The notes under the pieces were generated by a model that was given only the letters and a program-made list of their open reading frames with translations, searched no databases and was not told the DNA's origin. A stretch of DNA of 64,000 bases from an uncultured Chloroflexia bacterium (GTDB taxonomy: Bacteria > Chloroflexota > Limnocylindria > Limnocylindrales > CSP1-4), in assembly GCA_963766735.1 (NCBI GenBank), contig CAVYBU010000004.1, positions 240,175 to 304,174 of the forward strand, written 5' to 3'. This document shows, one piece after another, positions 43,422 through 57,242 of this stretch. The position numbers and the translations under genes were made by a program. Numbering within the stretch: the first letter of the stretch is position 1; every line of letters starts with the position of its first letter.

Positions 43422-43600
43422 GATGGGCTCCCACCTCAATGGCTCGGGGGCGCTGGAGCGGCTCGCCGTGCCGCCACTCACAGGCCGGCCCGACGAGTAT
43501 CGATCGTAGCCCAGCGGACGGGTTGCGGGTGGGTGGCCTTCGCAGGTCCCGGGGCTGCGAATCTCGCGGGTCGGGTTCGGCCACGCCTTATCATCAACGC

Positions 43601-44410
43601 ATGCTGCTCGCGGTCGACATCGGGAACACCAACATCACCCTCGGCCTCGTGGACGGCGGCACCCTCGCCACCATCCGCCGAACCGGCACGCTCAGGGCGT
43701 CCACCTCGGACGAGATGGAGCTCCTCCTGGTCGGCATCCTTGGCCTCGATGGCCGCCTTCTGGACGCCGTCACGATCATCGCCGTCGCCTCGGTCGTACC
43801 CGCCCAGACCGCGATGCTGGAGAGCGTCGCCGCCCGCCGTGGCATCGGCCTGCTGGTGGCGACCGCCGGCACTGTCCCGCTCGCCATCCGCGTGGACCGC
43901 CCGGGCGAGGTGGGACCGGACCGGCTGGTCAATGCCCTGGCCGCCCAGCGGCTGCACGGCACGCCCGCCGTCGTGGTCGACTTCGGGACCGCAACGACGT
44001 TCGACTGCGTGGGACCTGACGGCGCCTACGTCGGGGGCGCCATCGCTCCCGGCCTTGAGCTGGGCCTCGAAGCGCTCGCGGCCCGCACCGCCAAGCTGCC
44101 GAGGATCGAGCTGCGCACCCCTGAGCGGGCGATCGGCCGCGATACCGTGAGCGCGATGCAGTCCGGCACCATCTTCGGCTACCAGGCCCTGGCGACGGGG
44201 CTCCTCGCCCGCGTCCGCGGAGAGCTGGCCGAGCAGGCCGGCGTCGCCCCGGAGGACGTCCGCACGATCCTCACCGGTGGCCTGTCCGCCGCCCCCTGGG
44301 CCCGAGCGATCGAGGGCGTGGACGTGATCGATCCTGACCTCACCCTCAAGGGCCTCGCGATCCTCCACGCCGAGGTCGCGGGTGGCGAGCCGCTGGACGG
44401 CACCCGATGA
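43601..44410 (+). CDS. coaX: Type III pantothenate kinase
   Basis: LLAVDIGNTN, VGPDR, VVDFGTATTFD, GGAIAPG and LTGG motifs. Confidence 0.96.
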   Translation: MLLAVDIGNTNITLGLVDGGTLATIRRTGTLRASTSDEMELLLVGILGLDGRLLDAVTIIAVASVVPAQTAMLESVAARRGIGLLVATAGTVPLAIRVDRPGEVGPDRLVNALAAQRLHGTPAVVVDFGTATTFDCVGPDGAYVGGAIAPGLELGLEALAARTAKLPRIELRTPERAIGRDTVSAMQSGTIFGYQALATGLLARVRGELAEQAGVAPEDVRTILTGGLSAAPWARAIEGVDVIDPDLTLKGLAILHAEVAGGEPLDGTR

Positions 44411-45732
44411 GCGGCCGCCTCGAGGGCCGGCTGATCGGCGTCGGCGTGTGCGGCTCCATCGCGGCCTACAAGTCGGTCGAGCTCGTCCGCCTCCTCCGCG
44501 CCGAGGGCGCCGAGGTCGTGGTCATGCTCACGCCGGCCGCCGCGGCGTTCGTCGGGCCGCTCACCTTCGAGGCGCTGTCCGGCCACGCGGTTGAGACAGA
44601 CGTCCTGGGCCTGCTCCCGGACCGGCGTATCGGCCACATCGTGGTGGCGGACACGGCCGACGCGCTGGTGATCGCCCCGGCGACGGCACGCTGGCTGGGC
44701 GCGATGGCGAACGGGATCGCGAGCGACACGATCACCGCCGCCTGCCTCGCCAGCGCCGCGCCCGTCGTGGTCGCGCCGGCGATGGACGGCGACATGTGGA
44801 CCCACCGCGCGACGCGCGACAACGTCGAGCGCCTGCAGCGGGACTTCGGCTACGCGCTGGTGCCGCCCGAGATCGGCTCGCTCGCGTCCGGGCAGTCCGG
44901 CATCGGGCGCCTGGCAGACCCCGCACGGATCGTGGATGCCGTGGCCGCCATCGTCGCGGATCGGCCGATCCGCCAGCCCGACGCCGCCGTGCGTCCGCCG
45001 CGGACCATGCCCGTCCACGAGCCGGACCTCGAGGGACGCCACGTCGTGGTGAGTGCCGGCGGAACCGTGGAGGCCATCGATCCCGTCCGGTTCATCGGCA
45101 ATCGCAGCACCGGCAGGATGGGCATCGCGATCGCGGAGGCAGCCCTTGCCCGCGGCGCGCGTGTCACGATCGTGGCCGGGCGCGTGGAGGTCCCGTTCCC
45201 CTCCACCGCGGAGGTCATCCGCGCCGAATCCACGGCCGCCATGCGCCAGGCCGTGCTCGACGCCGTGTTCGAGGGGCGCGCGGACGTCCTCGTCATGGCC
45301 GCCGCCGTCGCCGACTTCCGGCCGCGGCGTGCCGCCGACGCCAAGCTCCCGCGCGATGGGTCCCTCACCCTGGAGCTGGAGCCCACCGAGGACATCCTCG
45401 CGGAGGTCGGTGTCCGCGCGAAGGACACTGTCCCCCGCCCCTTCATCGTCGGGTTCGCGGCCGAGACGGGTTCGCTGGAGCGGGCGCCCGCCAAGCTCCG
45501 CCGCAAGGGCGCGGACCTGCTTGTCGCCAACGACGTCTCGGAGGCTGGGTCGGGCTTCGGGACCGACACCAACCGCGTCTCGATCCTGGCCTCCGACGGC
45601 TCGCGGGACGATCTCCCGCTGCTGGCCAAGCGCGAGGTCGCCCACCGCCTCCTCGACCGCGTGGCGGCCGCGCTGGACGAACGGGACGGCCGGTCCCACA
45701 CTGGCGCGACCAGAACGGAGACCAACCAATGA
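44407..45732 (+). CDS. coaBC: Phosphopantothenoylcysteine decarboxylase/ligase
   Basis: GSIAAYK, APAT, APAM, IDPVRFIGNRSTG, AAAVADF, GFAAET and LVANDV motifs. Confidence 0.96.
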   Translation: MSGRLEGRLIGVGVCGSIAAYKSVELVRLLRAEGAEVVVMLTPAAAAFVGPLTFEALSGHAVETDVLGLLPDRRIGHIVVADTADALVIAPATARWLGAMANGIASDTITAACLASAAPVVVAPAMDGDMWTHRATRDNVERLQRDFGYALVPPEIGSLASGQSGIGRLADPARIVDAVAAIVADRPIRQPDAAVRPPRTMPVHEPDLEGRHVVVSAGGTVEAIDPVRFIGNRSTGRMGIAIAEAALARGARVTIVAGRVEVPFPSTAEVIRAESTAAMRQAVLDAVFEGRADVLVMAAAVADFRPRRAADAKLPRDGSLTLELEPTEDILAEVGVRAKDTVPRPFIVGFAAETGSLERAPAKLRRKGADLLVANDVSEAGSGFGTDTNRVSILASDGSRDDLPLLAKREVAHRLLDRVAAALDERDGRSHTGATRTETNQ

Positions 45733-46643
45733 GCGTCCAGAACGACTCCGTCCGCCGCCTCTCGGTCGTGGACATCGGCAGGCTCTACGCCGACGGCGTC
45801 CGCATCGCGACCATCACCGCCTACGACTACCCGACGGCGGCGCTCGTGGACGAGGCGGGCATCCCGCTGATCCTCGTCGGCGACTCGCTGGCGCAGGTCA
45901 TCCTCGGCTACGACACGACCGTGCGGGTCTCGATGGAGGAGATGATCCACCACACCAAGGCGGTGGTCCGGGGCACGGCGCGCGCGCTCATCGTCGCCGA
46001 CATGCCGTTCCTCTCCTACTCGAACGCCGAGGACGCCCTTGCCAACGCCGGGCGCTTCCTGCGCGAGGCAGGCGCCCAGGCGGTCAAGATCGAGGGCGGC
46101 GTGCGGAGCGCACGCACGATCGAGGCGCTGGTCAGGGCCGGGATCCCCGTGATGGGCCACATCGGCCTCACCCCGCAGGCGATCAACACGCTCGGCCGGG
46201 TCCGCGTCCAGGGCAAGTCCAGGGCCCAGGCCCGTTCCCTCCTTGCCGACGCCCTCGCCGTCCAGGAGGCCGGCGCCTTCGCCGTCGTCCTGGAGCTGGT
46301 CCCCGGGCAGCTGGCCCAGGCCATCACGGACCGGCTGCACATCCCCACGATCGGGATCGGTGCGGGTGCGGGTTGCTCCGGCCAGATCCAGGTGATCAAC
46401 GACACGCTGGGCTGGGGTGCATGGGTCCCGAAGCACGCCCGCAAGTACGCGGACCTGCGCATGACGATCCTGGACGCCGTGGCGCAGTACCGCGCGGACG
46501 TCGAGGCCGGCACGTTCCCGGGCGAGGACGAGACCGTGCTGATGGACCCGGCGGTCCTGGACGAGGTGCTGGGCCGGTCCGGCGCGGATCGCGCGGACCC
46601 GGCCTCGGATCTGGCGGGCATCCCGCTGGATCGCGACCTCTAG
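45729..46643 (+). CDS. panB: 3-methyl-2-oxobutanoate hydroxymethyltransferase
   Basis: TAYD, ILVGDSL, ADMPFLSY, VKIEGG, MGHIGLTPQ and TIGIGAG motifs. Confidence 0.96.
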   Translation: MSVQNDSVRRLSVVDIGRLYADGVRIATITAYDYPTAALVDEAGIPLILVGDSLAQVILGYDTTVRVSMEEMIHHTKAVVRGTARALIVADMPFLSYSNAEDALANAGRFLREAGAQAVKIEGGVRSARTIEALVRAGIPVMGHIGLTPQAINTLGRVRVQGKSRAQARSLLADALAVQEAGAFAVVLELVPGQLAQAITDRLHIPTIGIGAGAGCSGQIQVINDTLGWGAWVPKHARKYADLRMTILDAVAQYRADVEAGTFPGEDETVLMDPAVLDEVLGRSGADRADPASDLAGIPLDRDL

Positions 46644-46687
46644 CCGTCCTGCTTCACGGCCGGCCGCCTCCCACTCGCCCACCCCTG

Positions 46688-47521
46688 ATGCACGTCGTCC
46701 GGACCCGCGCCGACCTGCGGGCAGCCCTCGCGTCGTCGCGGCGGCCGGTCGGGCTGGTCCCCACCATGGGCTGGCTGCACGCGGGGCACGTGTCGCTGAT
46801 CGAACGGGCGCGTGCCGAGAACGCGACCGTGGTGGTGTCGATCTTCGTCAACCCGCGCCAGTTCGGCCAGGTCGCCGACTTCGCACGGTACCCGCGCAAC
46901 GAGACACGGGACATCGAGGCCTGCGAGCGTGCCGGCGTGGACCTGGTGTTCGCCCCGACCGTGGACGAGGTCTACCCCACCGGCTTCGACACCCGCGTGT
47001 CCGTCGGCGCCATCGCGGACCCGCTGGAGGGTGCGGCGCGGCCGGGTCACTTCGACGGCGTGGCGACGGTGGTGGCGATCCTGTTCGCGCTGGTCGCTGC
47101 GGAGCGCGCCTACTTCGGCCTCAAGGACTACCAGCAGGTGCAGGTGATCCGGCGCATGGCCCTGGACCTCGCGCTGCCCACGGAGGTGGTCGCCTGCGAA
47201 ACGCTCCGCGAGCCGGACGGGCTGGCGATGTCGTCACGCAACGCACGGCTCTCGCCGGCGGGGCGGGCGGCGGCTTCCGTGCTCCGGCGGGCGCTCGTGG
47301 CGGGGGCCGCGGCAGTCCGGGATGGGACGCGGGAGGCCGATGCCATCCGCGCGGCGATGCTGGCCGTGCTGGCGACGGAGCCGATGGCGACCCCGGACTA
47401 CGTGTCGGTCGCGGACCCGGACACGCTCATCGAGCTGGAGGCGGCGGCCGGCCGTGCGCTGCTGTCGCTCGCGGTTGAGATCGAGGGCGTCCGCCTCATC
47501 GACAACACGCAGGTCGGGTAG
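46688..47521 (+). CDS. panC: Pantoate--beta-alanine ligase
   Basis: VPTMGWLHAGH, SIFVNPRQF, RPGHFDGV, FGLKDYQQ, GLAMSSRN and RLIDN motifs. Confidence 0.96.
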   Translation: MHVVRTRADLRAALASSRRPVGLVPTMGWLHAGHVSLIERARAENATVVVSIFVNPRQFGQVADFARYPRNETRDIEACERAGVDLVFAPTVDEVYPTGFDTRVSVGAIADPLEGAARPGHFDGVATVVAILFALVAAERAYFGLKDYQQVQVIRRMALDLALPTEVVACETLREPDGLAMSSRNARLSPAGRAAASVLRRALVAGAAAVRDGTREADAIRAAMLAVLATEPMATPDYVSVADPDTLIELEAAAGRALLSLAVEIEGVRLIDNTQVG

Positions 47522-47599
47522 GGCCAGAAGCAGCGTCGCGTCCAGGTTTCGGGCCTGGCAGGTCCGGGCCGGCGCGCCGGCGGTTCGCCGTCCGCGCGG

Positions 47600-48931
47600 T
47601 CAGGAAAGCGCGGCCCGGTTCGCGCGAAGCCAGCCTCCAACCGCCTCGACCAGGGCGTCGATCTCGTCCTTGCCCATCGCGGTCGAGACCGCGGCCGAGC
47701 CCGTGTTGATCATGATGAACCCCTCCCCCAGCAGGTGCTCGAGGAGGCCCCGCAGAAGGCGTGACTCGTCGGGGCCGACGAAGGCCTCCCGGTAGTTGCG
47801 CGGCGGCCGCGGCTTCAGGTGCACGCGGAACATCGAGCCCCCGCCCGTCACGCATGCCCCGGCGCCCGTGGCGCGGATGACCTCATCCAGCCCGGTCCGG
47901 GCGCGATCCGCGAGCTGGTTCACGCGGGCGACGGCCGGCCGATCGAAGAGCTCCATCGCCGCCAGGCCCGCGGTCATGGTGATCGGGTTGGCCGAGAAGG
48001 TGCCTGACAGCGGGAACCGGACGTGGGAGACCAGCGGGTCCATGACATCCATGACCTCGCGGCGGCCTGCCAGCGCCCCCACCGGGAAGCCGCCCCCGAT
48101 GACCTTGCCCATCGCTGTCAGGTCTGGCCGCACGTCGTACCACTCCTGGGCCCCACCGTACCCGGAGCGGAAGGTGATGACCTCGTCGAAGACCAGGAGG
48201 GCACCATGCCGCCGGGTCCAGTCCCGGAGGGCGCCGACGAACTCGGCCGTGGCCGGCATGAGCCCAACCCGGTGGGGAAGCGGATCGATCAGGACGCAGG
48301 CCAGCTCGTCGCGGTGGCGGTCGAGGATCGCCACTGCCGTCTCGGGATCGTTGAACGGGATGACGACCACGTCCTCCAGGGCCTTGGCCGGCGTGCCGTC
48401 CGACACCGGTACGCTCAGCGGCCTGTCCTGCTCGCCCCAGGTGGCCGGTCCGGATGTCTGGCTGACCTCCGCGTAGTCGTACAGGCCGTGATAGGCCCCC
48501 TCGACCTTGGCGATCCTGGCTCGTCCGGTGAAGGCGCGGGCCGCCTTCAGGCAGCTCATCACCGCCTCGGTCCCGGAATTGACGAACCGGACCTTCTCGA
48601 AGCCGGGGTTCCGACCGCACAGGTGCTCCGCGTAGCGCACCTCGACCTCGGTGCCCAGCGTGAACGCCGTGCCCTTCTGGAGCTGCTCGGTCACCGCCGC
48701 CACCACGACCGGGTTCGCGTGTCCGTGGATCAGCGACGCCATGTTGTTGGCGAAGTCGATGCGCGTCACGCCCTCGATGTCCGTGACGCGAGCGCCCTGC
48801 CCGTAGGCCGCATACAGCGGATGGGGGCTGCGCAGCACGGTGTTGCGGCTCACGCCCCCGGGCAGGACCCGCCGTGCTCTCTCGTAGAGGGCTTCACTGC
48901 TGGACGAGGGCCGTCCGGTGTCTGAGGTCAT
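47600..48931 (-). CDS. Class III PLP aminotransferase (HemL-like / beta-amino-acid transaminase-like)
   Basis: LPGGVSR, FVNSGTEA, GAYHG, FDEVITFR, MGKVIGGGFPVGA and SGTFSANP; lacks the VNSPVRAF motif of true HemL. Confidence 0.8.
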   Translation of the reverse strand: MTSDTGRPSSSSEALYERARRVLPGGVSRNTVLRSPHPLYAAYGQGARVTDIEGVTRIDFANNMASLIHGHANPVVVAAVTEQLQKGTAFTLGTEVEVRYAEHLCGRNPGFEKVRFVNSGTEAVMSCLKAARAFTGRARIAKVEGAYHGLYDYAEVSQTSGPATWGEQDRPLSVPVSDGTPAKALEDVVVIPFNDPETAVAILDRHRDELACVLIDPLPHRVGLMPATAEFVGALRDWTRRHGALLVFDEVITFRSGYGGAQEWYDVRPDLTAMGKVIGGGFPVGALAGRREVMDVMDPLVSHVRFPLSGTFSANPITMTAGLAAMELFDRPAVARVNQLADRARTGLDEVIRATGAGACVTGGGSMFRVHLKPRPPRNYREAFVGPDESRLLRGLLEHLLGEGFIMINTGSAAVSTAMGKDEIDALVEAVGGWLRANRAALS

Positions 48932-48964
48932 CGAGCCGGAGCCGCCTTTCCGCTGTCGTCCTGC

Positions 48965-50413
48965 TCAGGCCGGCGAGCCGATCTCGACGGGGAGTGAGGT
49001 CCGCGCGTACTCGACTCGGGAGTACTCGAACAGGCCCGCCTCGTCGTAGATCACCCTGTCGGCATAGTCGTCGAACCAGAGCGCCTCGGGGTTGCGCCCC
49101 ACGATGCAGACCTTGCCGCGGTCGCCTGCGTTGAGGGCATTGCGGAGGATCTTGAAGATGACCACCCCGTGCTCCGCGCCCGGGACGCCCGGCATCGGCT
49201 CGGTGGTGACCGCCGCCACCTCGGTCTTGCCCTTGTAGTGGGTGATCGAGAGGCGCGCGTGGGTCTCGACGCCCGACAGGCCCTTCTGCGACTCGTTCAG
49301 GATGTTCCAGGCGGTCTCGATCGGCACGTTGAAGGACCGGTACGCAATGATGTCCCGTCCGCAGAAGAAGTAGTGGTTCTCGGCGCCAACCCGCTTGATG
49401 GCGCGCTGCATGATCCGGAGCGCTTCCGGATCGTCGTTGATCCCCTTGATGATCGGTGCCTGGTTCTCGACCCGGATCCAGCCCCGCGACACCACACCGT
49501 CCATGGCCCGGCGTGTCCGCTCGTTCCACTTCAGGGATCCATTGGCATTGGGGATGTAGTCCCCCGCCGCATCCTTCTGGAGGAACTCGTCGGGGTGGTT
49601 GAAGTGCACCATGAGCCTCATGCCGACCTCGGGATAGGTCGCATGGAAGCTGTCCAGCATGGCCAGGAAGGCCTCGTCGAAGCGGTCCGGGTGGAAGGCC
49701 ATCTCCTTCGTCCCGATCCTGATCGACTCGATGCCCGCCTCGGCGAGCGCGGCCAGCCAGGGGGCGATCCTGTTGTTCGGCAGCACCATCGGATCGCCGC
49801 CGGAGAGGAGGATCTCCCTCAGCTTCTCTCGCCCGGACGTGGGATGGCGGCCCCCGTTCTGCTCCACGAGCCGGTTGTGGGCCGTGATGTAGCCGGTGAC
49901 CTCGGGGATCCGGGCGAGCCCTTTGGCGCCCACGGCCCCATCGGCACGCTCGACCTCCTTGCGGGCGATCAGCTCCTCGCGGTAGCAGAAGCGGCAATGG
50001 GCCGAGCACGTGGACACCACGTACATGAGGCCCATCTCGTACTTGTGGAGGAGACCCTCCACCGGGCTGAAGTCCATCTGGTGGCCCGGGTCCTCCGAAC
50101 CCGCCAGGTCGAACGTCTCAGCGGGACTCGCCTTGACCAGCCGCTGGAGGGCCGGGCTGTGGCGGGCCATCTCGAAGTAGTGCCGGGTGACCTTCACGGG
50201 CATGCGGGCTTCGACATCCCGGTCGGTGCCCTTCAGCCGCCGGAGGGCGTCCAGCTCGTCCTCGCTGTAGAAGCCCTTCATGTCCTCGGGCTCCCGGCCA
50301 TCCAGGAACGTGGCGAGGCCGCTGACGATCTGCCGGTCGTACTTGGGGCTCTCGACCGTGTCCAGGAACGCCTGCTCCCTGGCCGTCGTCACGTATGCCA
50401 TCGCCTCGCTCAT
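48965..50413 (-). CDS. KamA-family radical SAM/PLP 2,3-aminomutase-like protein
   Basis: SPVEGLLHKYE, CSAHCRFCYR (CxxxCxxC), LLSGGDP, IRIGTK, HFNHPDE, NQAPIIKGINDD and GKTEV (PLP Lys). Confidence 0.85.
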   Translation of the reverse strand: MSEAMAYVTTAREQAFLDTVESPKYDRQIVSGLATFLDGREPEDMKGFYSEDELDALRRLKGTDRDVEARMPVKVTRHYFEMARHSPALQRLVKASPAETFDLAGSEDPGHQMDFSPVEGLLHKYEMGLMYVVSTCSAHCRFCYREELIARKEVERADGAVGAKGLARIPEVTGYITAHNRLVEQNGGRHPTSGREKLREILLSGGDPMVLPNNRIAPWLAALAEAGIESIRIGTKEMAFHPDRFDEAFLAMLDSFHATYPEVGMRLMVHFNHPDEFLQKDAAGDYIPNANGSLKWNERTRRAMDGVVSRGWIRVENQAPIIKGINDDPEALRIMQRAIKRVGAENHYFFCGRDIIAYRSFNVPIETAWNILNESQKGLSGVETHARLSITHYKGKTEVAAVTTEPMPGVPGAEHGVVIFKILRNALNAGDRGKVCIVGRNPEALWFDDYADRVIYDEAGLFEYSRVEYARTSLPVEIGSPA

Positions 50414-50450
50414 GCTGGTCACCTCAACTCCGGATACCGCTCCGGCTCCG

Positions 50451-50466
50451 ATGATTGTACACTGAT
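50451..50466. promoter_or_regulatory. AT-rich imperfect palindrome overlapping divergent -10-like hexamers (candidate RpiR operator)
   Basis: ATGATTGTACACTGAT is 12/16 self-complementary and contains TACAAT (minus) and TACACT (plus). Confidence 0.45.
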
Positions 50467-50505
50467 GAACAGATGGCACATGACACTGTAACGGGTCGTC
50501 CATCG

Positions 50506-51354
50506 ATGACGGACTCGTCCCTCGCCCAGATCGTCGCCGTCGCCGCGGAGCGGCTCACGCCGACCGATCGACGCATCGCCTCGGCGGTGCTGGATGACCC
50601 GACGCTCCTCGCCTTCGGGACTGTCACGGACCTGGCGCACGCCATCGGGACGAGCCGCCCCTCGATCGTCCGGTTCGCCACCCGGCTCGGCTTCGCCGGC
50701 TACACGGACCTCCAGGGCCAGGTGCGCCTCGGGCTCTCGGTGCAGCTGGCCCGGCCAACCGAGCGCATCCGCCACGAGCACGGGAGATCTGCGCCGGCGC
50801 GGTCGGCGATGGAGCGGTCGATCGCGTCCGTCTTCGAAGCCGCGGGGGCCGGTCGCCTCCAGCAGCTCGCTCGAGCGATCTCGGACGCCAGGACCGTCTG
50901 GATCGCATCCGGTGAGACGTCCCGGGCGGGGGCACACGCGCTGCTGAGCGGGCTCAGCATGGTCCGGCCCGGGGTCCGGTTGCTGGAGGACCAGACCATC
51001 GGGCGCGACCTGACCGATGTCGGGCCTGGCGACGCCGCGGTCGTGTTCGACTTCTTCCGCTACCGGCGGTCGGTGATCACTGCGGCCAGGATCATGGCCG
51101 GATCCGGTGCAGAGGTCATCGCGATCACCGACGGTCCGCTCTCCCCGCTTGCCAGGCTCACCGGGTCATGGGTCGAGCTCTACGTGCCGGCCATCGGACC
51201 GTTCGACAGTTCCGTCCCCGCCGTGGCCTTCGCCGAGCTGCTCGTCGCCGAGGTGGCCAGCCAGCTGCGCGACAGCGTCACGGAGCGCGTCGATCGGACC
51301 GAGGAGCTATGGGCGGCCACCCAGACGTTCTTCGTCGAGGAGCCGTCGCCCTAG
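50506..51354 (+). CDS. MurR/RpiR family transcriptional regulator (HTH + SIS)
   Basis: LTPTDRRIA, TSRPSIVRFATRLGFAGY and IAITDGPLSPLA; start could instead be ATG 50473. Confidence 0.9.
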   Translation: MTDSSLAQIVAVAAERLTPTDRRIASAVLDDPTLLAFGTVTDLAHAIGTSRPSIVRFATRLGFAGYTDLQGQVRLGLSVQLARPTERIRHEHGRSAPARSAMERSIASVFEAAGAGRLQQLARAISDARTVWIASGETSRAGAHALLSGLSMVRPGVRLLEDQTIGRDLTDVGPGDAAVVFDFFRYRRSVITAARIMAGSGAEVIAITDGPLSPLARLTGSWVELYVPAIGPFDSSVPAVAFAELLVAEVASQLRDSVTERVDRTEELWAATQTFFVEEPSP

Positions 51355-51394
51355 CGTGCGCCTTGCCCGGGGGTGGGGCGCCCGGCGCGACGCC

Positions 51395-52594
51395 TCACGC
51401 GAACCGGGCCTCGGCGGCCACCTCGAGGAACCGGTCGATGAGCAGGTGCTCCCAGACCAGCTCCTTGATCAGCTCGATCTTGCCCGTGTCGGCGGCGTGC
51501 GTCTTCACCAGGAGGCCCTGCACCTGGGCCGCGACGGTGTAGGTGTCCTCGTCGACGGTCGCGGCGAACATGCCGGCGTCACGAAGCACCGCCAGCACCT
51601 CGGAGCCTGGCGCGTAGCCACCCGTCAGCACGATACCCAGCACCTTGCCGTTCCGTGAATCGATGCCTCCGGGGGCTTCGCCCGCTCGCGCCGTGGGTTG
51701 GTCATTCTCGTCGACGCACGACCGGCTCGCGACGTACGCGGCGGCGAGCGCGAGGATCGCCTCCTTGCGATCGCTCGGGACGATGACCAGCGTGCAGGGA
51801 CCCATCCGGTCCAGCATGTGGACTGTCTCCATCGCGCCGACCGCAACCCCACCGATCACCCGGTCGAGATCCGGGCCGGTGTTGATGACGCGCCCGCCGA
51901 CGCCCTCCAGCACCATCCCGAGCGTCGGGCTGGAGAGGATCGGCCGGTATGGCAGGACGCCGAGGAGCGGGATGCCGTGGAGGGCCAGACCTCGCTCGAG
52001 GGTGCGCGCGATGCCCGGCTGCTCGTCGATGCGCACCTTGTTCACGAGCGCCCCTGCGACATGGACGCCGTGCGCGGCAAAGTGCGAGGCGTTGAGCACG
52101 ATCTCGTCGATCGGCCGGCCGACGCCGCCCTCGGACACGATCACCGCCGGCGTCCCGAGCATCGAGGCAACCGTCGCATTTGACAGACCCACGACCGCGC
52201 CCACGCCCGCGTGCCCGGTTCCCTCGACCAGGAGGATGTCGTGGTCGGCGAACCGGCGGTGGGCATCGAGGATCAGCGCGCCCAGGTCCTCCACGACGTC
52301 GCCCGCGATGTAGGCCTTGGTGAAGCCGCGCGGGAGGTGGACGGGACTCATCGTGCTGCCCGACTCGGGCAGGCCGAAGACCGTCCGCATCAGCAGGGCA
52401 TCCTCATCGACCAGGTCCGTGAATGTCAGCCCGTCATCGTCTGCGGGATCCGCGCCCACCGGGATCGGGCGCTGTCCGACGGGCTTCATGAACCCGGTCC
52501 GCAAGCCACGCCGGCGGAAGCCGTCGATCAACCCCAGCGAGGCCGTGGTCTTGCCACGGTTCTGGCCGGTGGCGGCGAGGTAGAGATGCCGCAT
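51395..52594 (-). CDS. Stand-alone phosphotransacetylase N-terminal-like protein (BioD-like P-loop + DRTGG)
   Basis: ATGQNRGKTT, GFMKPVGQ, LVEGTGH, VGAM, PSDR and GIVLTGG motifs. Confidence 0.8.
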   Translation of the reverse strand: MRHLYLAATGQNRGKTTASLGLIDGFRRRGLRTGFMKPVGQRPIPVGADPADDDGLTFTDLVDEDALLMRTVFGLPESGSTMSPVHLPRGFTKAYIAGDVVEDLGALILDAHRRFADHDILLVEGTGHAGVGAVVGLSNATVASMLGTPAVIVSEGGVGRPIDEIVLNASHFAAHGVHVAGALVNKVRIDEQPGIARTLERGLALHGIPLLGVLPYRPILSSPTLGMVLEGVGGRVINTGPDLDRVIGGVAVGAMETVHMLDRMGPCTLVIVPSDRKEAILALAAAYVASRSCVDENDQPTARAGEAPGGIDSRNGKVLGIVLTGGYAPGSEVLAVLRDAGMFAATVDEDTYTVAAQVQGLLVKTHAADTGKIELIKELVWEHLLIDRFLEVAAEARFA

Positions 52595-52618
52595 GGGGGG
52601 CGGACGGTGGCGGGCGTG

Positions 52619-53224
52619 TCAGCCGCGCGAGGCGGTCTTGCGCTCGATGAGCTGGACGGCCTCGCGCAGGCGGACCAGGGACTCCTCGTCCACGCTGTCC
52701 GGCTCGAGGTAGGGCCCCAGGCGTTCCATGATGTCCGTCACCAGGCCCAGGAACACCGCGGCGTCCGCGAGGAAGAACTGCGGCTCGTTGTTGTAGCGGA
52801 CCATGGTCAGGCGGCCCTGCAGCACCCGCCGCTCCTCGACGTGTGCGACCTGGGTGGAGAAGTTGTGACCCTGGATGCCGTCCGGGTTGTTCAGGAAGTT
52901 GAGCGCATTGTCGATGGCAAGGCCGAAGCGGGCCCGCCACGCCACGAGTCGTTCGTGGACCTCGGGCGGGATCCGGACCTCGCCCACCTCCTCGAACACC
53001 TCGGGCGCCACGGTGACCAGGCCCACGAGCGTCGTGCCGGCCCGGGCACCCAGCATCACCTGCAGGCTGCGCTCCAGGGTGAAGACCTCGGAGTCGAAGC
53101 GCGGGCTCGTGATGACATCCGTCAGCAGATCCTCGACGTTGTCGAGACTGCCGGGGTCGTTGAGGGCATCGGCAAGGTGGAGGATCTCCTCCTTGAAGAG
53201 GAACTTCTCCTCATGGTCAAGCAT
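52619..53224 (-). CDS. Hypothetical protein, 201 aa
   Basis: Coding-like ORF; TACCAT -10 lies 6 nt before the ATG; family not recognised. Confidence 0.75.
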   Translation of the reverse strand: MLDHEEKFLFKEEILHLADALNDPGSLDNVEDLLTDVITSPRFDSEVFTLERSLQVMLGARAGTTLVGLVTVAPEVFEEVGEVRIPPEVHERLVAWRARFGLAIDNALNFLNNPDGIQGHNFSTQVAHVEERRVLQGRLTMVRYNNEPQFFLADAAVFLGLVTDIMERLGPYLEPDSVDEESLVRLREAVQLIERKTASRG

Positions 53225-53348
53225 GGCGCGATGGTAACAGGGGGCGCCGGAGGCCCGCGTCCGGCATGGTTGCCGGGAATCGATCGGCCCGGGCGAACCC
53301 GGGCCGATCAGGTGGACAGGTCAGGCAACCGCGACGGTTGCGCCCGAT

Positions 53349-54614
53349 CTACGGATAGAGGCCGCGAAGGGCGGTGGCGTCCGCGACACGCTTCACCGCG
53401 ACGAGGTACGCCGCGGTCCGCATGTCCACTTCCCTGAGCTTCGCCATCGCGAGGACCTCCCCGAAGGAGCGGTCCATGATCTCCTTGAGCTTGGCGTTGA
53501 CGACGGCCTCGCTCCAGTGATCGCGGTTCAGGTCCTGGACCCACTCGAAGTAGCTGACGGTCACTCCGCCCGCGTTCGCGAGGATGTCCGGGATCATGAA
53601 CACGCCCTTCTTCGCCAGGATGCGGTCGGCGTCCGGCGTCGTGGGACCGTTTGCGGCCTCGGCGACGATCTTGGCCTTCACCCTGCCGGCATTCTGGGCG
53701 GTGATCTGGTTCTCGTAGGCGGCCGGGATCAGGACGTCGCACTCCAGCTCGAGGAGCTCGCCGTTGGTGATCGTGGTGGTGCCCGGGAAGCCGACGACTG
53801 TGCCGTGCTCCTTCTTCCAGGCCAGCACCCGGTCCACGTCAAGGCCGGCAGCGTTCATGATCGCGCCGCCGGTGTCGGAGACGGCGATGATCGTCGACCC
53901 CTCGTCGGCCATCAGCCGCGCGGCGATGGAGCCGGCGTTGCCGAAGCCCTGGACGGCCGTCATGCTCGTCCTGAGATCGAGGCCCAGGTGGGCGGCGGCG
54001 TCCACGATGGTGTAGACGCAGCCGCGCGCGGTCGCCTCGTTGCGTCCCTCCGACCCACCAAGGCTGATCGGCTTGCCGGTGACCACGCCCGGGACCGTGT
54101 ACCCGGCGTGCATGGAGTACGTGTCCATGAACCAGGCCATGATCTGCGGCGTCGTGTTGACATCCGGGGCCGGGATGTCGCGCTCGGGGCCGATCAGGAC
54201 CGAGATCTCGGTGAAGAACCGGCGACTGAGACCCTCGAGCTCCTTCAGCGAGAGCTTCTTGGGGTCGACGCTGACGCCGCCCTTGCCGCCGCCGTAGGGA
54301 ATGCCCACGACCGCGCATTTCCAGGTCATCCACATCGAGAGGGCCTTGACCTCATCGAGCGTGACGTCCTGGTGGTACCGGATGCCGCCCTTGGCAGGGC
54401 CTCGGGTGAGGTTGTGCTGGACGCGGTAGCCCGTGAAGACCTCGACACGGCCGTCGTCCATGTGCACCGGGAAGTGGACCGTGAGCTCGCGGCGTGGCTC
54501 GCGCAGCACGTTCCGCAGGCCCGGATCGAGATCGAGCATCTCGGCGGCCAGGTCGAACTGCTGCTGTGCGACCTGCCAGGCGTTGATCGGAGCCGTTGTG
54601 TTCTCCGTCGTCAT
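53349..54614 (-). CDS. gdhA: Glutamate dehydrogenase
   Basis: GPAKGGIRYH, MTWKCA, GGGKGG, DIPAPDVNT, QGFGNAG and NAGGVTVSYFEW motifs. Confidence 0.96.
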   Translation of the reverse strand: MTTENTTAPINAWQVAQQQFDLAAEMLDLDPGLRNVLREPRRELTVHFPVHMDDGRVEVFTGYRVQHNLTRGPAKGGIRYHQDVTLDEVKALSMWMTWKCAVVGIPYGGGKGGVSVDPKKLSLKELEGLSRRFFTEISVLIGPERDIPAPDVNTTPQIMAWFMDTYSMHAGYTVPGVVTGKPISLGGSEGRNEATARGCVYTIVDAAAHLGLDLRTSMTAVQGFGNAGSIAARLMADEGSTIIAVSDTGGAIMNAAGLDVDRVLAWKKEHGTVVGFPGTTTITNGELLELECDVLIPAAYENQITAQNAGRVKAKIVAEAANGPTTPDADRILAKKGVFMIPDILANAGGVTVSYFEWVQDLNRDHWSEAVVNAKLKEIMDRSFGEVLAMAKLREVDMRTAAYLVAVKRVADATALRGLYP

Positions 54615-54881
54615 GAACGGATAGTCCTCGTGGCGGGGCGGCGGAGGCCGCCCCTGGTCGATGGGCCGTCTTCCGGACGACCCCACGGGGGCGCGCGACC
54701 GGCCCGGCCGTGGCATGGCCGAGGCATCGCATGCCGCCTCTGGAACCCGAGTATAGCCTCGGACAGGCGTCCACCATGGGCCGCTCGTCACCTGCCCGCA
54801 ACCATTCCGTCACCCGGTCGTCCCTGTCCTGTGGCAGGGGTGGATGGGCTGAGCACGCGCGCTGAGTCGCGCCCCAGGACC

Positions 54882-54940
54882 TGGCCTTCGCCCGGGTGGA
54901 CGGCGCCCGGGTGGCCTTCGCCCGGGTGGACGGCGCCCGG
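54882..54940. repeat. Tandem 30-bp duplication built of alternating 15-mers
   Basis: (TGGCCTTCGCCCGGG TGGACGGCGCCCGGG) x2, second copy lacking the final G. Confidence 0.85.
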
Positions 54941-54949
54941 TGCCCGACC

Positions 54950-55795
54950 TCAGCGCCGGTAGAGGATCACCGCACCCACGCAGCCGGGTCCGAGGTGCGG
55001 GCCCACCGATGCGCCGATGGTCAGCAGCTGGACCAGCGCCGGGTCCAGGCCGGACCGCACCACGAACTTGTCATAGAACTCGTCCACGTCGGCCTGGGTC
55101 GTGTGGAGCACGGTCGCCCGCTCCAGCGGCTTCGCAGTCAGCAGCTCCAGGACCCTCTCTCGGGCCTTGGTCCGGGAGCGGACCTGCTCAGCGTTCTCCA
55201 CCACGCCGTCGATCACCGTGATGATCGGCTTGATCGAGAGGATGGAGCCCATCGCGGCGCGCGCGCCGCTGATCCGGCCGCCACGCTTGAGATACTCGAG
55301 CGTGTCGAGGGCGACGAACAGGTCGATGTCGCGCTGGCGGTCCACAAGTACGGCCGCGATCTCCGCCCCGGACTTGCCCTCGGCCGCCATCCGGGCGCCC
55401 ATCTGGGCGAGCATCCCCTCTCCGGCCGAGGCCGAACGCGAGTCGATCACGTGGATCTCGCGGTCGGGGCGCATGTCGCGGGCGATCAGCGCGGCCTTGA
55501 GCGTGGCGGACAGCTGGTCCGACACGGTGATGCACACCACGGACTCGGCGCCACCACCGAACGCGGCGTCGAACACCGTCAGGAAGTCGCCCGCGGAGCA
55601 GGCCGCCGTGGTCGGGAACGGCGCGTCCGGTGCCGTCATCCGGGCCCAGAACTCGTCGGTGGTCATGGTGACGTTCGGGCGGAAGCTCTCGGACCCGAAG
55701 GTGACGACGAGCGGCACCACGGTGATGCCGTCCCGGGCAGCGACCTCGGGCGGGAGGTCGCTGACGGAATCGGTGACGATCGCGACACGGGACAC
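54950..55795 (-). CDS. DegV family fatty-acid-binding protein
   Basis: VAIVTDS, VIDSRSAS, LEYLKRGGRI, IKPII and VGPHLGPG motifs. Confidence 0.93.
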   Translation of the reverse strand: MSRVAIVTDSVSDLPPEVAARDGITVVPLVVTFGSESFRPNVTMTTDEFWARMTAPDAPFPTTAACSAGDFLTVFDAAFGGGAESVVCITVSDQLSATLKAALIARDMRPDREIHVIDSRSASAGEGMLAQMGARMAAEGKSGAEIAAVLVDRQRDIDLFVALDTLEYLKRGGRISGARAAMGSILSIKPIITVIDGVVENAEQVRSRTKARERVLELLTAKPLERATVLHTTQADVDEFYDKFVVRSGLDPALVQLLTIGASVGPHLGPGCVGAVILYRR

Positions 55796-55946
55796 GTCGA
55801 GGCTCCTCCATCGGGCCCGTCCACCGGTGCCCGGCGGGCGGCGATCGGCGCCGGCGGCGGCGCCCACGGTCGATCCCCCCTCCTGCCGATCATACGGGCC
55901 CACGAACCCACGCGTTCGCCTGTTCGGACCGGCTACGCTTCCGCCC

Positions 55947-57242
55947 ATGGAGCGCGCCGTCCTCGCGGTCATCTTCGGAACCTTCACGCTGCGTCTCGCG
56001 ACCGGCGTGACCGGCGCCATGCTGATCTACTACTACGCGGTCTTCCCCGAGTACGGCGGGGAGCCCGTGCAGGCGTGGCAGGTCGGCGTCCTGGGGGCGC
56101 TGTTCTACGCGTCGGAGCTGATTGGCTCGCCGATCTTCGGCATTCTGTCGGACCGGGTCGGCCACCGGCGGATCATGCTGCTCGGCCCGGCGTTCGGCGC
56201 GATCGCAGTCATCATCACCGCGTTCACGGTGAGCCTCCCGGTCATCGGCGTCACGCGCCTCCTCGAGGGCGCCTCGACGGCGGCGTCCGTGCCGTCGATC
56301 CTCGGGTTCATCGCCTTCGCCACCGCCACCAACGAGCTGATGCGCGGTCGGGCGGTGGCCCGGTTCGAGGCGGCGACCCTCGCCGGGCTCCTGGTCGGGT
56401 TCGTGGTGGCGGGCCCCCTCTTCGAGGCCTTCGGGCCGTCGGCGTTCATCGCCAACGCGATGGTCTACGGCGTCTCGTTCCTGATCTACCTGCGCGGCGT
56501 CCCGCCGGATGCGGAGCCGGAGCCCGCCGCCCGAAAGCACGAGCCCGGGGAAGGCCTGCGGCGGTACGTCCGCATCCTCCGCGGCAGCCACGTCTGGCTG
56601 CTGGCACCGACCTGGATCGCCATCAATGCCACCCTCGGCCTGTATACCAGCCAGACGCTGTTCCAGCTGGTCCGGGACCCGGATCCGGCGTTCTCCGCCC
56701 AGCAGCTGATGGGCGGCTTCGATCCGGCCCAGGTCAGCGTCGCGCTCGCCATCGGGGGCCTGCTGTTCTTCGCCGGCCTGCTCTACTGGGGCGGGCGCTT
56801 CCGGGACATGGCCCGGACCTCGATCATCGGCCGGGGGATCCTGGGCGGAGCCGTCATGCTGGTCGCCGGGGCCGGGATCAACCACGCCGCGGGGTTCCCG
56901 CTGCCGGTGCTGCTGGGGCTGGTCCTGATCGCTGCCGGGGGCCTGTTCGTGCTCGCGGGCGCCACGCCCGCGGCGATCGGCCTCCTCGCGGACATGACCG
57001 AGGCGTACCCGGACGATCGGGGGGCGATCATGGGTCTCTACTCGGTGTTCCTGGGCCTGGGTCAGATCCTGGGCAGCATCGCGGGCGGCGTGGCGGCCCA
57101 GGTTGCCGGCCTTGACGGCATCCTCATCGCGTCGCTGGTGCTCCTGGGCGTCGCGGTCATTCCGCTCCGACACCTGAGCCGGTACGAACACCACGTCGGC
57201 GCAGCGGCCGCACACGACGGTGGGATCTCGTCCGGTGGCTGA
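55947..57242 (+). CDS. MFS transporter
   Basis: GILSDRVGHRR motif A, about 12 TM, RGAIMGLYS; TACGCT -10 lies 7 nt before the ATG. Confidence 0.9.
   Translation: MERAVLAVIFGTFTLRLATGVTGAMLIYYYAVFPEYGGEPVQAWQVGVLGALFYASELIGSPIFGILSDRVGHRRIMLLGPAFGAIAVIITAFTVSLPVIGVTRLLEGASTAASVPSILGFIAFATATNELMRGRAVARFEAATLAGLLVGFVVAGPLFEAFGPSAFIANAMVYGVSFLIYLRGVPPDAEPEPAARKHEPGEGLRRYVRILRGSHVWLLAPTWIAINATLGLYTSQTLFQLVRDPDPAFSAQQLMGGFDPAQVSVALAIGGLLFFAGLLYWGGRFRDMARTSIIGRGILGGAVMLVAGAGINHAAGFPLPVLLGLVLIAAGGLFVLAGATPAAIGLLADMTEAYPDDRGAIMGLYSVFLGLGQILGSIAGGVAAQVAGLDGILIASLVLLGVAVIPLRHLSRYEHHVGAAAAHDGGISSGG

Follow-up and report, generated by a model that had tools for sequence, protein, structure and literature searches.

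A KamA-like radical SAM protein encoded beside a beta-amino-acid-type transaminase in an uncultured Chloroflexia bacterium: a candidate reduced copy of a widespread, putatively catabolic operon

A two-gene, operon-like unit in an uncultured Chloroflexia bacterium encodes a radical S-adenosylmethionine (SAM) protein related to the lysine 2,3-aminomutase KamA, followed by a class III transaminase. The unit is located on contig CAVYBU010000004.1, within a stretch of 64,000 nucleotides referred to here as the window, and is divergent from a gene encoding an RpiR-type regulator. Judged by its relatives in other genomes, it appears to be a reduced copy of a widespread and uncharacterised catabolic operon, without the CoA-transferase genes of that operon. 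The basis of all results is computational. The genes and the elements of the region separating them are the following:

47600-48931, minus strand: class III transaminase, glutamate-1-semialdehyde aminomutase (GSAM)-like, of the beta/omega-amino-acid type, 443 amino acids (aa), lying 33 bp past the stop of the KamA-like gene
48965-50413, minus strand: KamA-like radical SAM/pyridoxal phosphate (PLP) gene, 482 aa; the open frame spans 48965..50503, with translation probably beginning at the ATG at 50413, which follows GAGGTG
50451..50492, no strand: candidate operator region in the divergent promoter, with the conserved motif and a palindrome
50456-61, 50466-71, 50481-86 and 50487-92: operator half-sites TGTACA, TGAACA, TGACAC and TGTAAC, respectively
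50506-51354, plus strand: divergent RpiR/MurR-family regulator (HTH_6 + SIS); the open reading frame (ORF) is 50455..51354, and the likely start is 50506

The RpiR and KamA-like genes are divergent and ~90 bp apart. The gene pair and its regulator lie where the first-pass annotation of this DNA had placed them, and the palindrome it mentioned is real.

The KamA-like protein is, on the evidence of profile comparison and a predicted fold, a true relative of KamA despite its low family scores. The structure 2A5H is its only match in a phmmer search of the PDB (E 1.2e-13), and profile-profile comparison with an alignment of canonical KamA proteins (hhalign) reaches a probability of 100 and an E-value of 1e-76 over 330 columns. 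An AlphaFold (AF2) model built from 19 sequences has a pLDDT of 86.8 and a pTM of 0.86; with this model, Foldseek returns 2a5h as the best PDB fold (E 3.5e-16, TM 0.55/0.65), viperin being second (3e-6). Residues were mapped onto a canonical lysine 2,3-aminomutase of the same genome, encoded on another contig (L002:865-2403, plus strand, 512 aa), which reaches 552 bits with TIGR03820, above the cut-off of 525, and displays the motifs YYLYQCD and VDAPGGGGK. The two Asp of these motifs are those that we take to bind the epsilon-amine of lysine; in the structure of Clostridium subterminale KamA, this is reportedly done by Asp293 (YYIYQCD) and Asp330 (VVDAPGGGGK).

The cysteines of the CxxxCxxC motif (C136/C140/C143), the GGD motif and the PLP lysine in G395-K396 all align with the in-genome enzyme, and both the CxxxCxxC motif and G395-K396 are invariant in alignments A1 and A3. 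The side-chain pocket differs. HYFFCGR is aligned with YYLYQCD by both BLASTP and hhalign, placing Arg353 at the position of the lysine-binding Asp, and the Asp of VDAPGGGGK sits, in the hhalign alignment, in an insertion that has no counterpart in the SITHYKGK of the KamA-like protein. Arg353 shows no variation among 19 family members (A3) or among nine members of a sister clade (A4). The replacement of Asp293 by Arg and the loss of an equivalent of Asp330, both proposed in the first-pass annotation, are thereby borne out by two alignment methods. Its view of the protein as a non-lysine KamA relative also agrees with these changes, with the presence of a canonical KamA elsewhere in the genome and with scores far below the cut-offs of the models for lysine 2,3-aminomutase (TIGR03820, 66 bits vs 525.4), glutamate 2,3-aminomutase (TIGR04368, 70.4 vs 650), arginine 2,3-aminomutase (TIGR04468, 79.9 vs 600) and EpmB (TIGR03821, 75.6 vs 369.3). 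An Arg in place of an amine-binding Asp argues against lysine as the substrate and for an anionic side chain.

More distant relatives were also collected. Proteins P0211-P0270 (alignment A2; 350-400 aa) score above the TIGR00238 cut-off and below that of every equivalog, with the consensus sequences PYYLFQCRPV and SHxxGK. Another set (P0153, P0167, P0170, P0172 and P0173 in A1; 600-720 aa, ~30% identity) carries a C-terminal Cys-rich tail with a Cys pattern resembling that of 2Fe-2S ferredoxins; a sequence search of the PDB with P0170 returned no ferredoxin match for this tail. The names of distant cluster members are uninformative. In the ESM Atlas, all clusters found are called "hypothetical protein" or "lysine 2,3-aminomutase".

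The second gene of the unit encodes a transaminase (TRANSAMINASE, 47600-48931) that matches PF00202 with 189 bits (cut-off 30.5). Among solved structures, it scores highest against 6K8H (423 bits) and next against ForI (352 bits); glutamate-1-semialdehyde aminomutases (~242 bits) and beta-transaminases (~225 bits) rank lower. With the HemL model TIGR00713 it reaches 336.4 bits, below the cut-off of 527.3. The distance from HemL in both comparisons is in line with its earlier assignment to beta-amino-acid transaminases rather than to HemL. The 6K8H structure is that of StoTA, an omega-transaminase of Sphaerobacter thermophilus, whose substrates include beta-homophenylalanine, 3-aminobutyrate, 4-aminopentanoate, beta-leucine and beta-phenylalanine (PMC10589169). 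The key residues singled out in that work are R36, N70, the catalytic Lys and T317. All four (the Lys being K282) are conserved in the window transaminase, as aligned to 6k8h.

Relatives of the KamA-like protein are numerous. A word-indexed search retrieved 2,420 protein clusters at 90% identity, the best 120 of which are 74-90% identical and ~482 aa long, and searching the 50%-identity representatives exhaustively yielded 1,754 matches, 83 of them at E<=1e-30. Of 600 candidate stretches in species-representative genomes, 584 code for relatives. Neighbouring genes were counted in the best 80 of these 584 stretches (69-82% identity). They belong to Planctomycetota, Actinomycetota, Pseudomonadota (Woeseiaceae, Lysobacterales), Acidobacteriota, Verrucomicrobiota, Gemmatimonadota, Chloroflexota and Krumholzibacteriota.

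In most related loci, the KamA-like and transaminase genes are separated by ~1.4 kb encoding subunits A and B of a 3-oxoacid CoA-transferase (ScoA and ScoB). ScoA is found in 74 of the 80 loci, ScoB in 72, a class III transaminase in 66, RpiR in 61 and a PcaF-like thiolase in 25. The 66 transaminases comprise 56 that lie directly downstream with at least 55% identity and 10 of a different GSAM-like type, and the 61 RpiR genes are divergent and ~100 bp upstream of the KamA-like gene. In the 51 well-flanked loci, having at least 4.5 kb downstream and at least 1.2 kb upstream, the counts are 49 for ScoA, 49 for ScoB, 47 for the transaminase, 39 for RpiR and 20 for the thiolase; ScoA is also present in 32 of 34 main-clade metagenome loci. 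The co-occurrence of aminomutase and transaminase genes elsewhere, on which the first-pass annotation had staked its proposal, is thus a regular feature. Its suggestion that a nearby gdhA could recycle the amino acceptor was not supported, gdhA being linked in none of the 80 loci.

Both CoA-transferase subunits score above their cut-offs (TIGR02429, 334-355 bits vs 128.5; TIGR02428, 292-294 bits vs 243.55), and the module enzyme is closest to the acetoacetate-type ScoA 3cdk (230 bits). In Woeseiaceae, the KamA-like gene is divergent from an RpiR-scoA-scoB-thiolase-transaminase series. The thiolase of one such locus (L058) passes the pcaF equivalog TIGR02430 with 671 bits (cut-off 597) and scores 552 bits to the Pseudomonas putida beta-ketoadipyl-CoA thiolase vs ~300 to acetoacetyl-CoA thiolases. 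Three Phycisphaerae genomes have their best PcaF-type match in the module-linked thiolase, which in two of them is the sole match at E<=1e-100. PcaD, the 3-oxoadipate enol-lactonase, is above cut-off in none of five carrier genomes; therefore, the 3-oxoadipate/thiolase branch probably does not serve aromatic catabolism.

Flanking genes outside the core are diverse. A Pfam scan of the 126 nearest non-core ORFs gave a heterogeneous set, with none recurring beyond a few loci. A polar-amino-acid ATP-binding cassette (ABC) transporter with a Lys/Arg/Orn-like binding protein adjoins RpiR in L010, L011 and L015, and in L015 a gene with a saccharopine-dehydrogenase domain adjoins RpiR as well. In three Woeseiaceae-type loci (L036, L040, L042), the gene for a large Old-Yellow-Enzyme/FadH-type flavoprotein (Oxidored_FMN + Pyr_redox_2) directly follows that of the transaminase, in the same orientation.

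A sister clade (40-47% identity, 45 loci) is without CoA-transferase and thiolase genes. A class III transaminase is found there in 8 loci and a beta-keto acid cleavage enzyme (BKACE) in 7, and in two loci (L121 and L122) the KamA-like gene, a class III transaminase and a BKACE (PF05853) form a tight operon. As two unrelated C2-removing systems are linked to the same pair of enzymes, the predicted order from alpha-amino acid to beta-amino acid to beta-keto acid is strongly supported. A sister subclade in metagenome loci (L098-L104, L110-L112, L116 and L126) is found by flagellar and chemotaxis genes (FliI-type ATPase, FliJ, CheR, CheW, CheB), with neither a transaminase nor a cleavage enzyme, and may have a different role.

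The regulator matches PF01418 (HTH_6, 45 bits) and PF01380 (SIS, 34 bits), both above their cut-offs. Comparison of 62 homologous RpiR/KamA-like intergenic regions revealed the word GTTACA in 57 of them, vs 2.3 expected from shuffles. In 35 regions the word occurs twice, with a spacing of 31 bp in 34 of these. GTTACA is always oriented toward the KamA-like gene (the reverse word is present in 2 of 62), and each copy is preceded by a TGTTCA-like word. The window operator consists of one canonical and one variant unit, the latter being the palindrome ATGATTGTACA/TGTACACTGAT at 50451-50466. RpiR would bind at this GTTACA-containing candidate operator and is presumed to be a repressor of the operon.

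A FastTree phylogeny was built from 70 of the 80 loci, ten having been dropped for mis-called ORFs. Phylum labels change 12 times on the tree, compared with a minimum of 7 and a shuffled mean of 33.5, and the nearest neighbour of the window is a locus labelled Chloroflexi (L006, support 99). Within the class of the window organism, the KamA-like gene was found in 3 of 301 sampled genomes, all of its own genus, and is therefore an accessory module. The G+C content is 0.719 (~72%) for the window, 0.665 for the KamA-like gene and 0.70-0.74 for its neighbours; acquisition by transfer would fit this low value. Eight metagenome studies, covering sediment, marine-sediment and aquatic samples, contain near-identical DNA (24-51% of sampled words), and two such runs contain contigs at least 99% like the window. 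Short contigs from two sediment metatranscriptome libraries (X19 and X20) match parts of both genes with 90-100% likeness; they were not counted as evidence of expression because DNA may be present in an RNA library and transcription cannot be read from contigs. Stretches left uncovered were likewise given no meaning.

From these data, we infer the following catabolic sequence. The KamA-like enzyme, using a [4Fe-4S] cluster, SAM and PLP, would act on an L-alpha-amino acid, shifting its amino group from C2 to C3, and the class III transaminase would convert the resulting beta-amino acid into a beta-keto acid. In the full module, the succinyl-CoA-dependent 3-oxoacid CoA-transferase (A + B) would then activate the beta-keto acid, and the beta-ketoadipyl-CoA-type thiolase would split off acetyl-CoA, leaving a shorter acyl-CoA. 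The divergent RpiR, acting on the pair of GTTACA sites spaced by 31 bp, would control both promoters. This order of steps, already anticipated in the first-pass annotation and matched by the ScoA, ScoB and thiolase counts and by BKACE in the sister clade, is considered likely.

The substrate would most likely be a dicarboxylic amino acid held by Arg353. Since Arg353 indicates an anionic side chain, and a PcaIJ/ScoAB-type transferase and a PcaF-type thiolase are precisely what turns 3-oxoadipate into succinyl-CoA and acetyl-CoA, the most economical reading is the conversion of L-2-aminoadipate into 3-aminoadipate, 3-oxoadipate and 3-oxoadipyl-CoA, which would yield succinyl-CoA and acetyl-CoA. 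Two example substrates had been put forward at first, and the type of thiolase favours the one leading from 2-aminoadipate to 3-oxoadipate. The ABC transporter (L010, L011, L015) and the saccharopine-dehydrogenase-domain gene (L015) add weakly to this choice. The naming of 2-aminoadipate in particular is tentative. In its most ambitious form, the proposal would make this the first natural 2,3-aminomutase for 2-aminoadipate, or more broadly for dicarboxylic amino acids, heading a new branch that would join the beta-ketoadipate pathway at its last two steps via 3-aminoadipate, under an RpiR repressor sensing something other than a sugar; it would occur widely among Planctomycetota, Woeseiaceae, Acidimicrobiia, Acidobacteriota and other sediment dwellers, alongside a BKACE-based counterpart in the sister clade. 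So complete a picture is conceivable rather than probable. To our knowledge, only lysine, arginine and glutamate are established as substrates of KamA-family radical SAM aminomutases, and we know of no biological route for 3-aminoadipate. In the literature, mostly open-access and at the level of abstracts, no description was found of the clade, of a 3-aminoadipate route or of an operon combining aminomutase, transaminase, CoA-transferase and thiolase.

A widespread catabolic aminomutase-transaminase operon with a dicarboxylic substrate, of which the window holds a reduced copy, is the best explanation overall and is held here with moderate confidence. Several observations weigh against it or against parts of it. 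The KamA-like protein reaches 86.2 bits with the KamA-family model TIGR00238, below the cut-off of 199.2, has no Pfam match at 1e-3, PF04055 included, and misses all the KamA subfamily models (lysine, arginine, glutamate, EpmB and AblA-like-2), with 66-82 bits vs cut-offs of 369-650. Generic, uncharacterised KamA-family proteins of ~30% identity also have the consensus QCR at the position of Arg353, so this residue is not unique to the clade; such a widespread Arg may not be specific for a distal carboxylate. The linked thiolase is confined to 25 of 80 loci, and that of a Phycisphaerae locus (L050) stands just under the pcaF cut-off (574 bits vs 597). RpiR/SIS regulators usually sense sugar phosphates, a poor fit to an amino acid. 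Lysine 6-transaminase (LAT) is over its cut-off in none of five module-bearing genomes, and a saccharopine-dehydrogenase domain (Sacchrp_dh_C) is found in one of the five, so by these two markers an internal source of 2-aminoadipate was not found in most of these genomes. Moreover, scoAB is missing between the two genes in the window, in L006 and in their own genus, the only places where the genes are directly adjacent. The own genome (93.85% complete) encodes a PcaF-like thiolase elsewhere (584 bits), but only a divergent CoA-transferase pair, and a ScoB protein query of it gave no match. On contig 17 of this genome (L089:53-3188), an acetylornithine-type class III transaminase gene directly precedes a divergent two-subunit CoA-transferase, a further pairing of these two enzyme types.

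The main rival explanation retains the chain of enzymes and changes what enters it: L-glutamate, interconverted with beta-glutamate, or beta-glutamate from the environment would give 3-oxoglutarate, to be activated and split into malonyl-CoA plus acetyl-CoA, or to lose its carboxylate as CO2 and form acetoacetate destined for the CoA-transferase and thiolase. The conserved Arg suits the carboxylate of glutamate, the known glutamate 2,3-aminomutase reportedly also exchanges both Asp, and the closest relative of the CoA-transferase is an acetoacetate-type ScoA (3cdk, 230 bits). The metagenomes that contain carriers and near-identical DNA are of sediment, marine-sediment and aquatic origin, and beta-glutamate is said to be abundant in such places, although no paper on the abundance of beta-glutamate (beta-aminoglutaric acid) in sediment pore water was found. 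However, the protein scores 70 bits with TIGR04368 vs a cut-off of 650, the linked thiolase is of the beta-ketoadipyl-CoA and not of the acetoacetyl-CoA type, and cheap catabolic routes for glutamate already exist; beta-glutamate, for its part, would need the mutase or the transaminase branch, not both. A glutamate pathway is therefore regarded as unlikely. Quite unlikely, too, is the entry of some other amino acid into the chain, whether 2-aminopimelate, cell-wall diaminopimelate or one of the neutral or aromatic amino acids (leucine or phenylalanine, for example). PcaF/PaaJ-type thiolases are said to accept C6-C8 dicarboxylyl-CoAs. Several loci are flanked by peptidase genes, and L043, L062 and L072 by a gene for a branched-chain-type binding protein. 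The solved transaminase nearest to the window enzyme, StoTA, accepts beta-Leu, beta-Phe and 3-aminobutyrate (PMC10589169). Yet a hydrophobic side chain would be difficult to accommodate in a side-chain pocket with an invariant Arg, and the heterogeneous flanks offer no gene recurring beyond a few loci.

A more radical alternative denies that the KamA-like protein acts on a free amino acid: it might carry out another radical SAM/PLP chemistry or modify a protein as in EpmB-linked systems, its neighbours serving another purpose. Its identity to KamA is indeed 24%, with two family-specific insertions and scores below all cut-offs, and the flagellar/chemotaxis-associated sister subclade does without the transaminase. 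Against it stand the conserved PLP lysine, SAM-cluster motif and KamA core. An aminomutase would also be expected in just such company, being linked tightly, as in an operon, to a beta-type transaminase and to beta-keto-acid-cleaving enzymes of two unrelated kinds. This alternative is considered improbable. The least probable case, and a very improbable one, is a biosynthetic direction, in which succinyl-CoA and acetyl-CoA would be turned into 3-oxoadipate, 3-aminoadipate and 2-aminoadipate, or into a beta-amino acid that serves as an osmolyte or a building block. Every step is reversible in principle, and KamA-family enzymes supply beta-amino acids to natural products (PMC9230918). The flanks, however, hold no nonribosomal peptide synthetase, polyketide synthase or lysine-biosynthesis genes, a divergent repressor and nearby uptake transporters make a typical catabolic-operon layout, and the distribution is patchy, as in the 3 of 301 genomes of the own class.

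The surroundings of the unit in the window appear unrelated to the module. Four upstream ORFs (43439-47521) were named coaX, coaBC, panB and panC from reading their translations; a link of the operon that follows them to beta-alanine and pantothenate was considered and rejected, panB, panC, coaBC and coaX each being found in 0 of 80 related loci. On the other side lie ORFs for an AAA_26/DRTGG protein, a 201-aa product, a glutamate dehydrogenase and a DegV protein, and a link of the module to any of these was dismissed on the same ground (0 of 80). The first (51395-52594, minus strand) combines AAA_26 and DRTGG domains like the N-terminal half of phosphate acetyltransferase, without the acetyltransferase domain. 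The 201-aa ORF after it (52619-53224, minus strand) has no Pfam or NCBIfam match. The glutamate dehydrogenase ORF (53349-54791, minus strand, 480 aa) has a family match beginning near residue 70, and its true start is probably an internal Met before TTENT. None of kamDE, kdd, kce, ablB, efp and epmA is among the seven neighbouring ORFs scanned (50455-56020), as had been noted at first. Among the core genes of the 80 related loci, neither efp nor epmA was present; the genome-wide position of efp was not searched. A scan of 47400-51500 predicted 0 sigma-70 promoters and 0 intrinsic terminators.

The clade is large, unusually conserved across phyla and placed in a self-explanatory operon, which makes its function directly testable. 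If the proposal is true, it would bring a new aminomutase specificity and a new route of amino-acid degradation ending in succinyl-CoA and acetyl-CoA. It would also provide a physiological role for beta-transaminases, now only biocatalysts, and a regulator-operator pair for a biosensor. A natural aminomutase for 2-aminoadipate or other dicarboxylates would be of interest for engineering routes to adipate and beta-amino acids.

All the enzyme types involved are known, the novelty lying in the proposed specificity, pathway and operator. With KamA (C. subterminale, 2A5H) and the TIGR00238 family, the window protein shares the CxxxCxxC and GGD motifs, the PLP lysine in a G-K motif, the core fold and an Arg two residues past the third Cys, whose role is said to be the binding of the alpha-carboxylate. 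It differs from KamA not only in sequence and in the Arg that replaces the first Asp, but also in the missing second Asp and GGGG loop, in insertions at ~152-196 and 279-297 and an extra N-terminal region, and in the lack of lysine-fermentation or elongation factor P genes among the window neighbours scanned. In glutamate 2,3-aminomutase, as Ruzicka and Frey are said to have described in 2007, both lysine-binding Asp are replaced, by a Lys/Asn pair, and an acidic side chain is accepted; the window protein has an Arg and a loop deletion instead, and another genomic context.

The lower beta-ketoadipate pathway (PcaIJ + PcaF) has its like in the TIGR02429/TIGR02428 subunits of related loci and in the L058 thiolase, but the supply in these loci would come from an aminomutase plus a transaminase instead of an enol-lactone hydrolase, and the genes are missing from the window. 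Lysine fermentation (KamA, KamDE, Kdd, Kce) and the BKACE family offer the same logic of an aminomutase, a beta-keto acid and C2 removal, the sister clade being directly linked to BKACE. Here, however, the keto group would come from a transaminase and not from a dehydrogenase, there is no 5,6-aminomutase, and the main clade would use a CoA-transferase and a thiolase. Lastly, among StoTA (6K8H) and the beta-transaminases (2YKU, 4AO9), StoTA aligns end to end with the window transaminase and has the same key residues; StoTA is described as a promiscuous biocatalyst without an assigned pathway (PMC10589169), whereas the window enzyme is encoded in a conserved operon.

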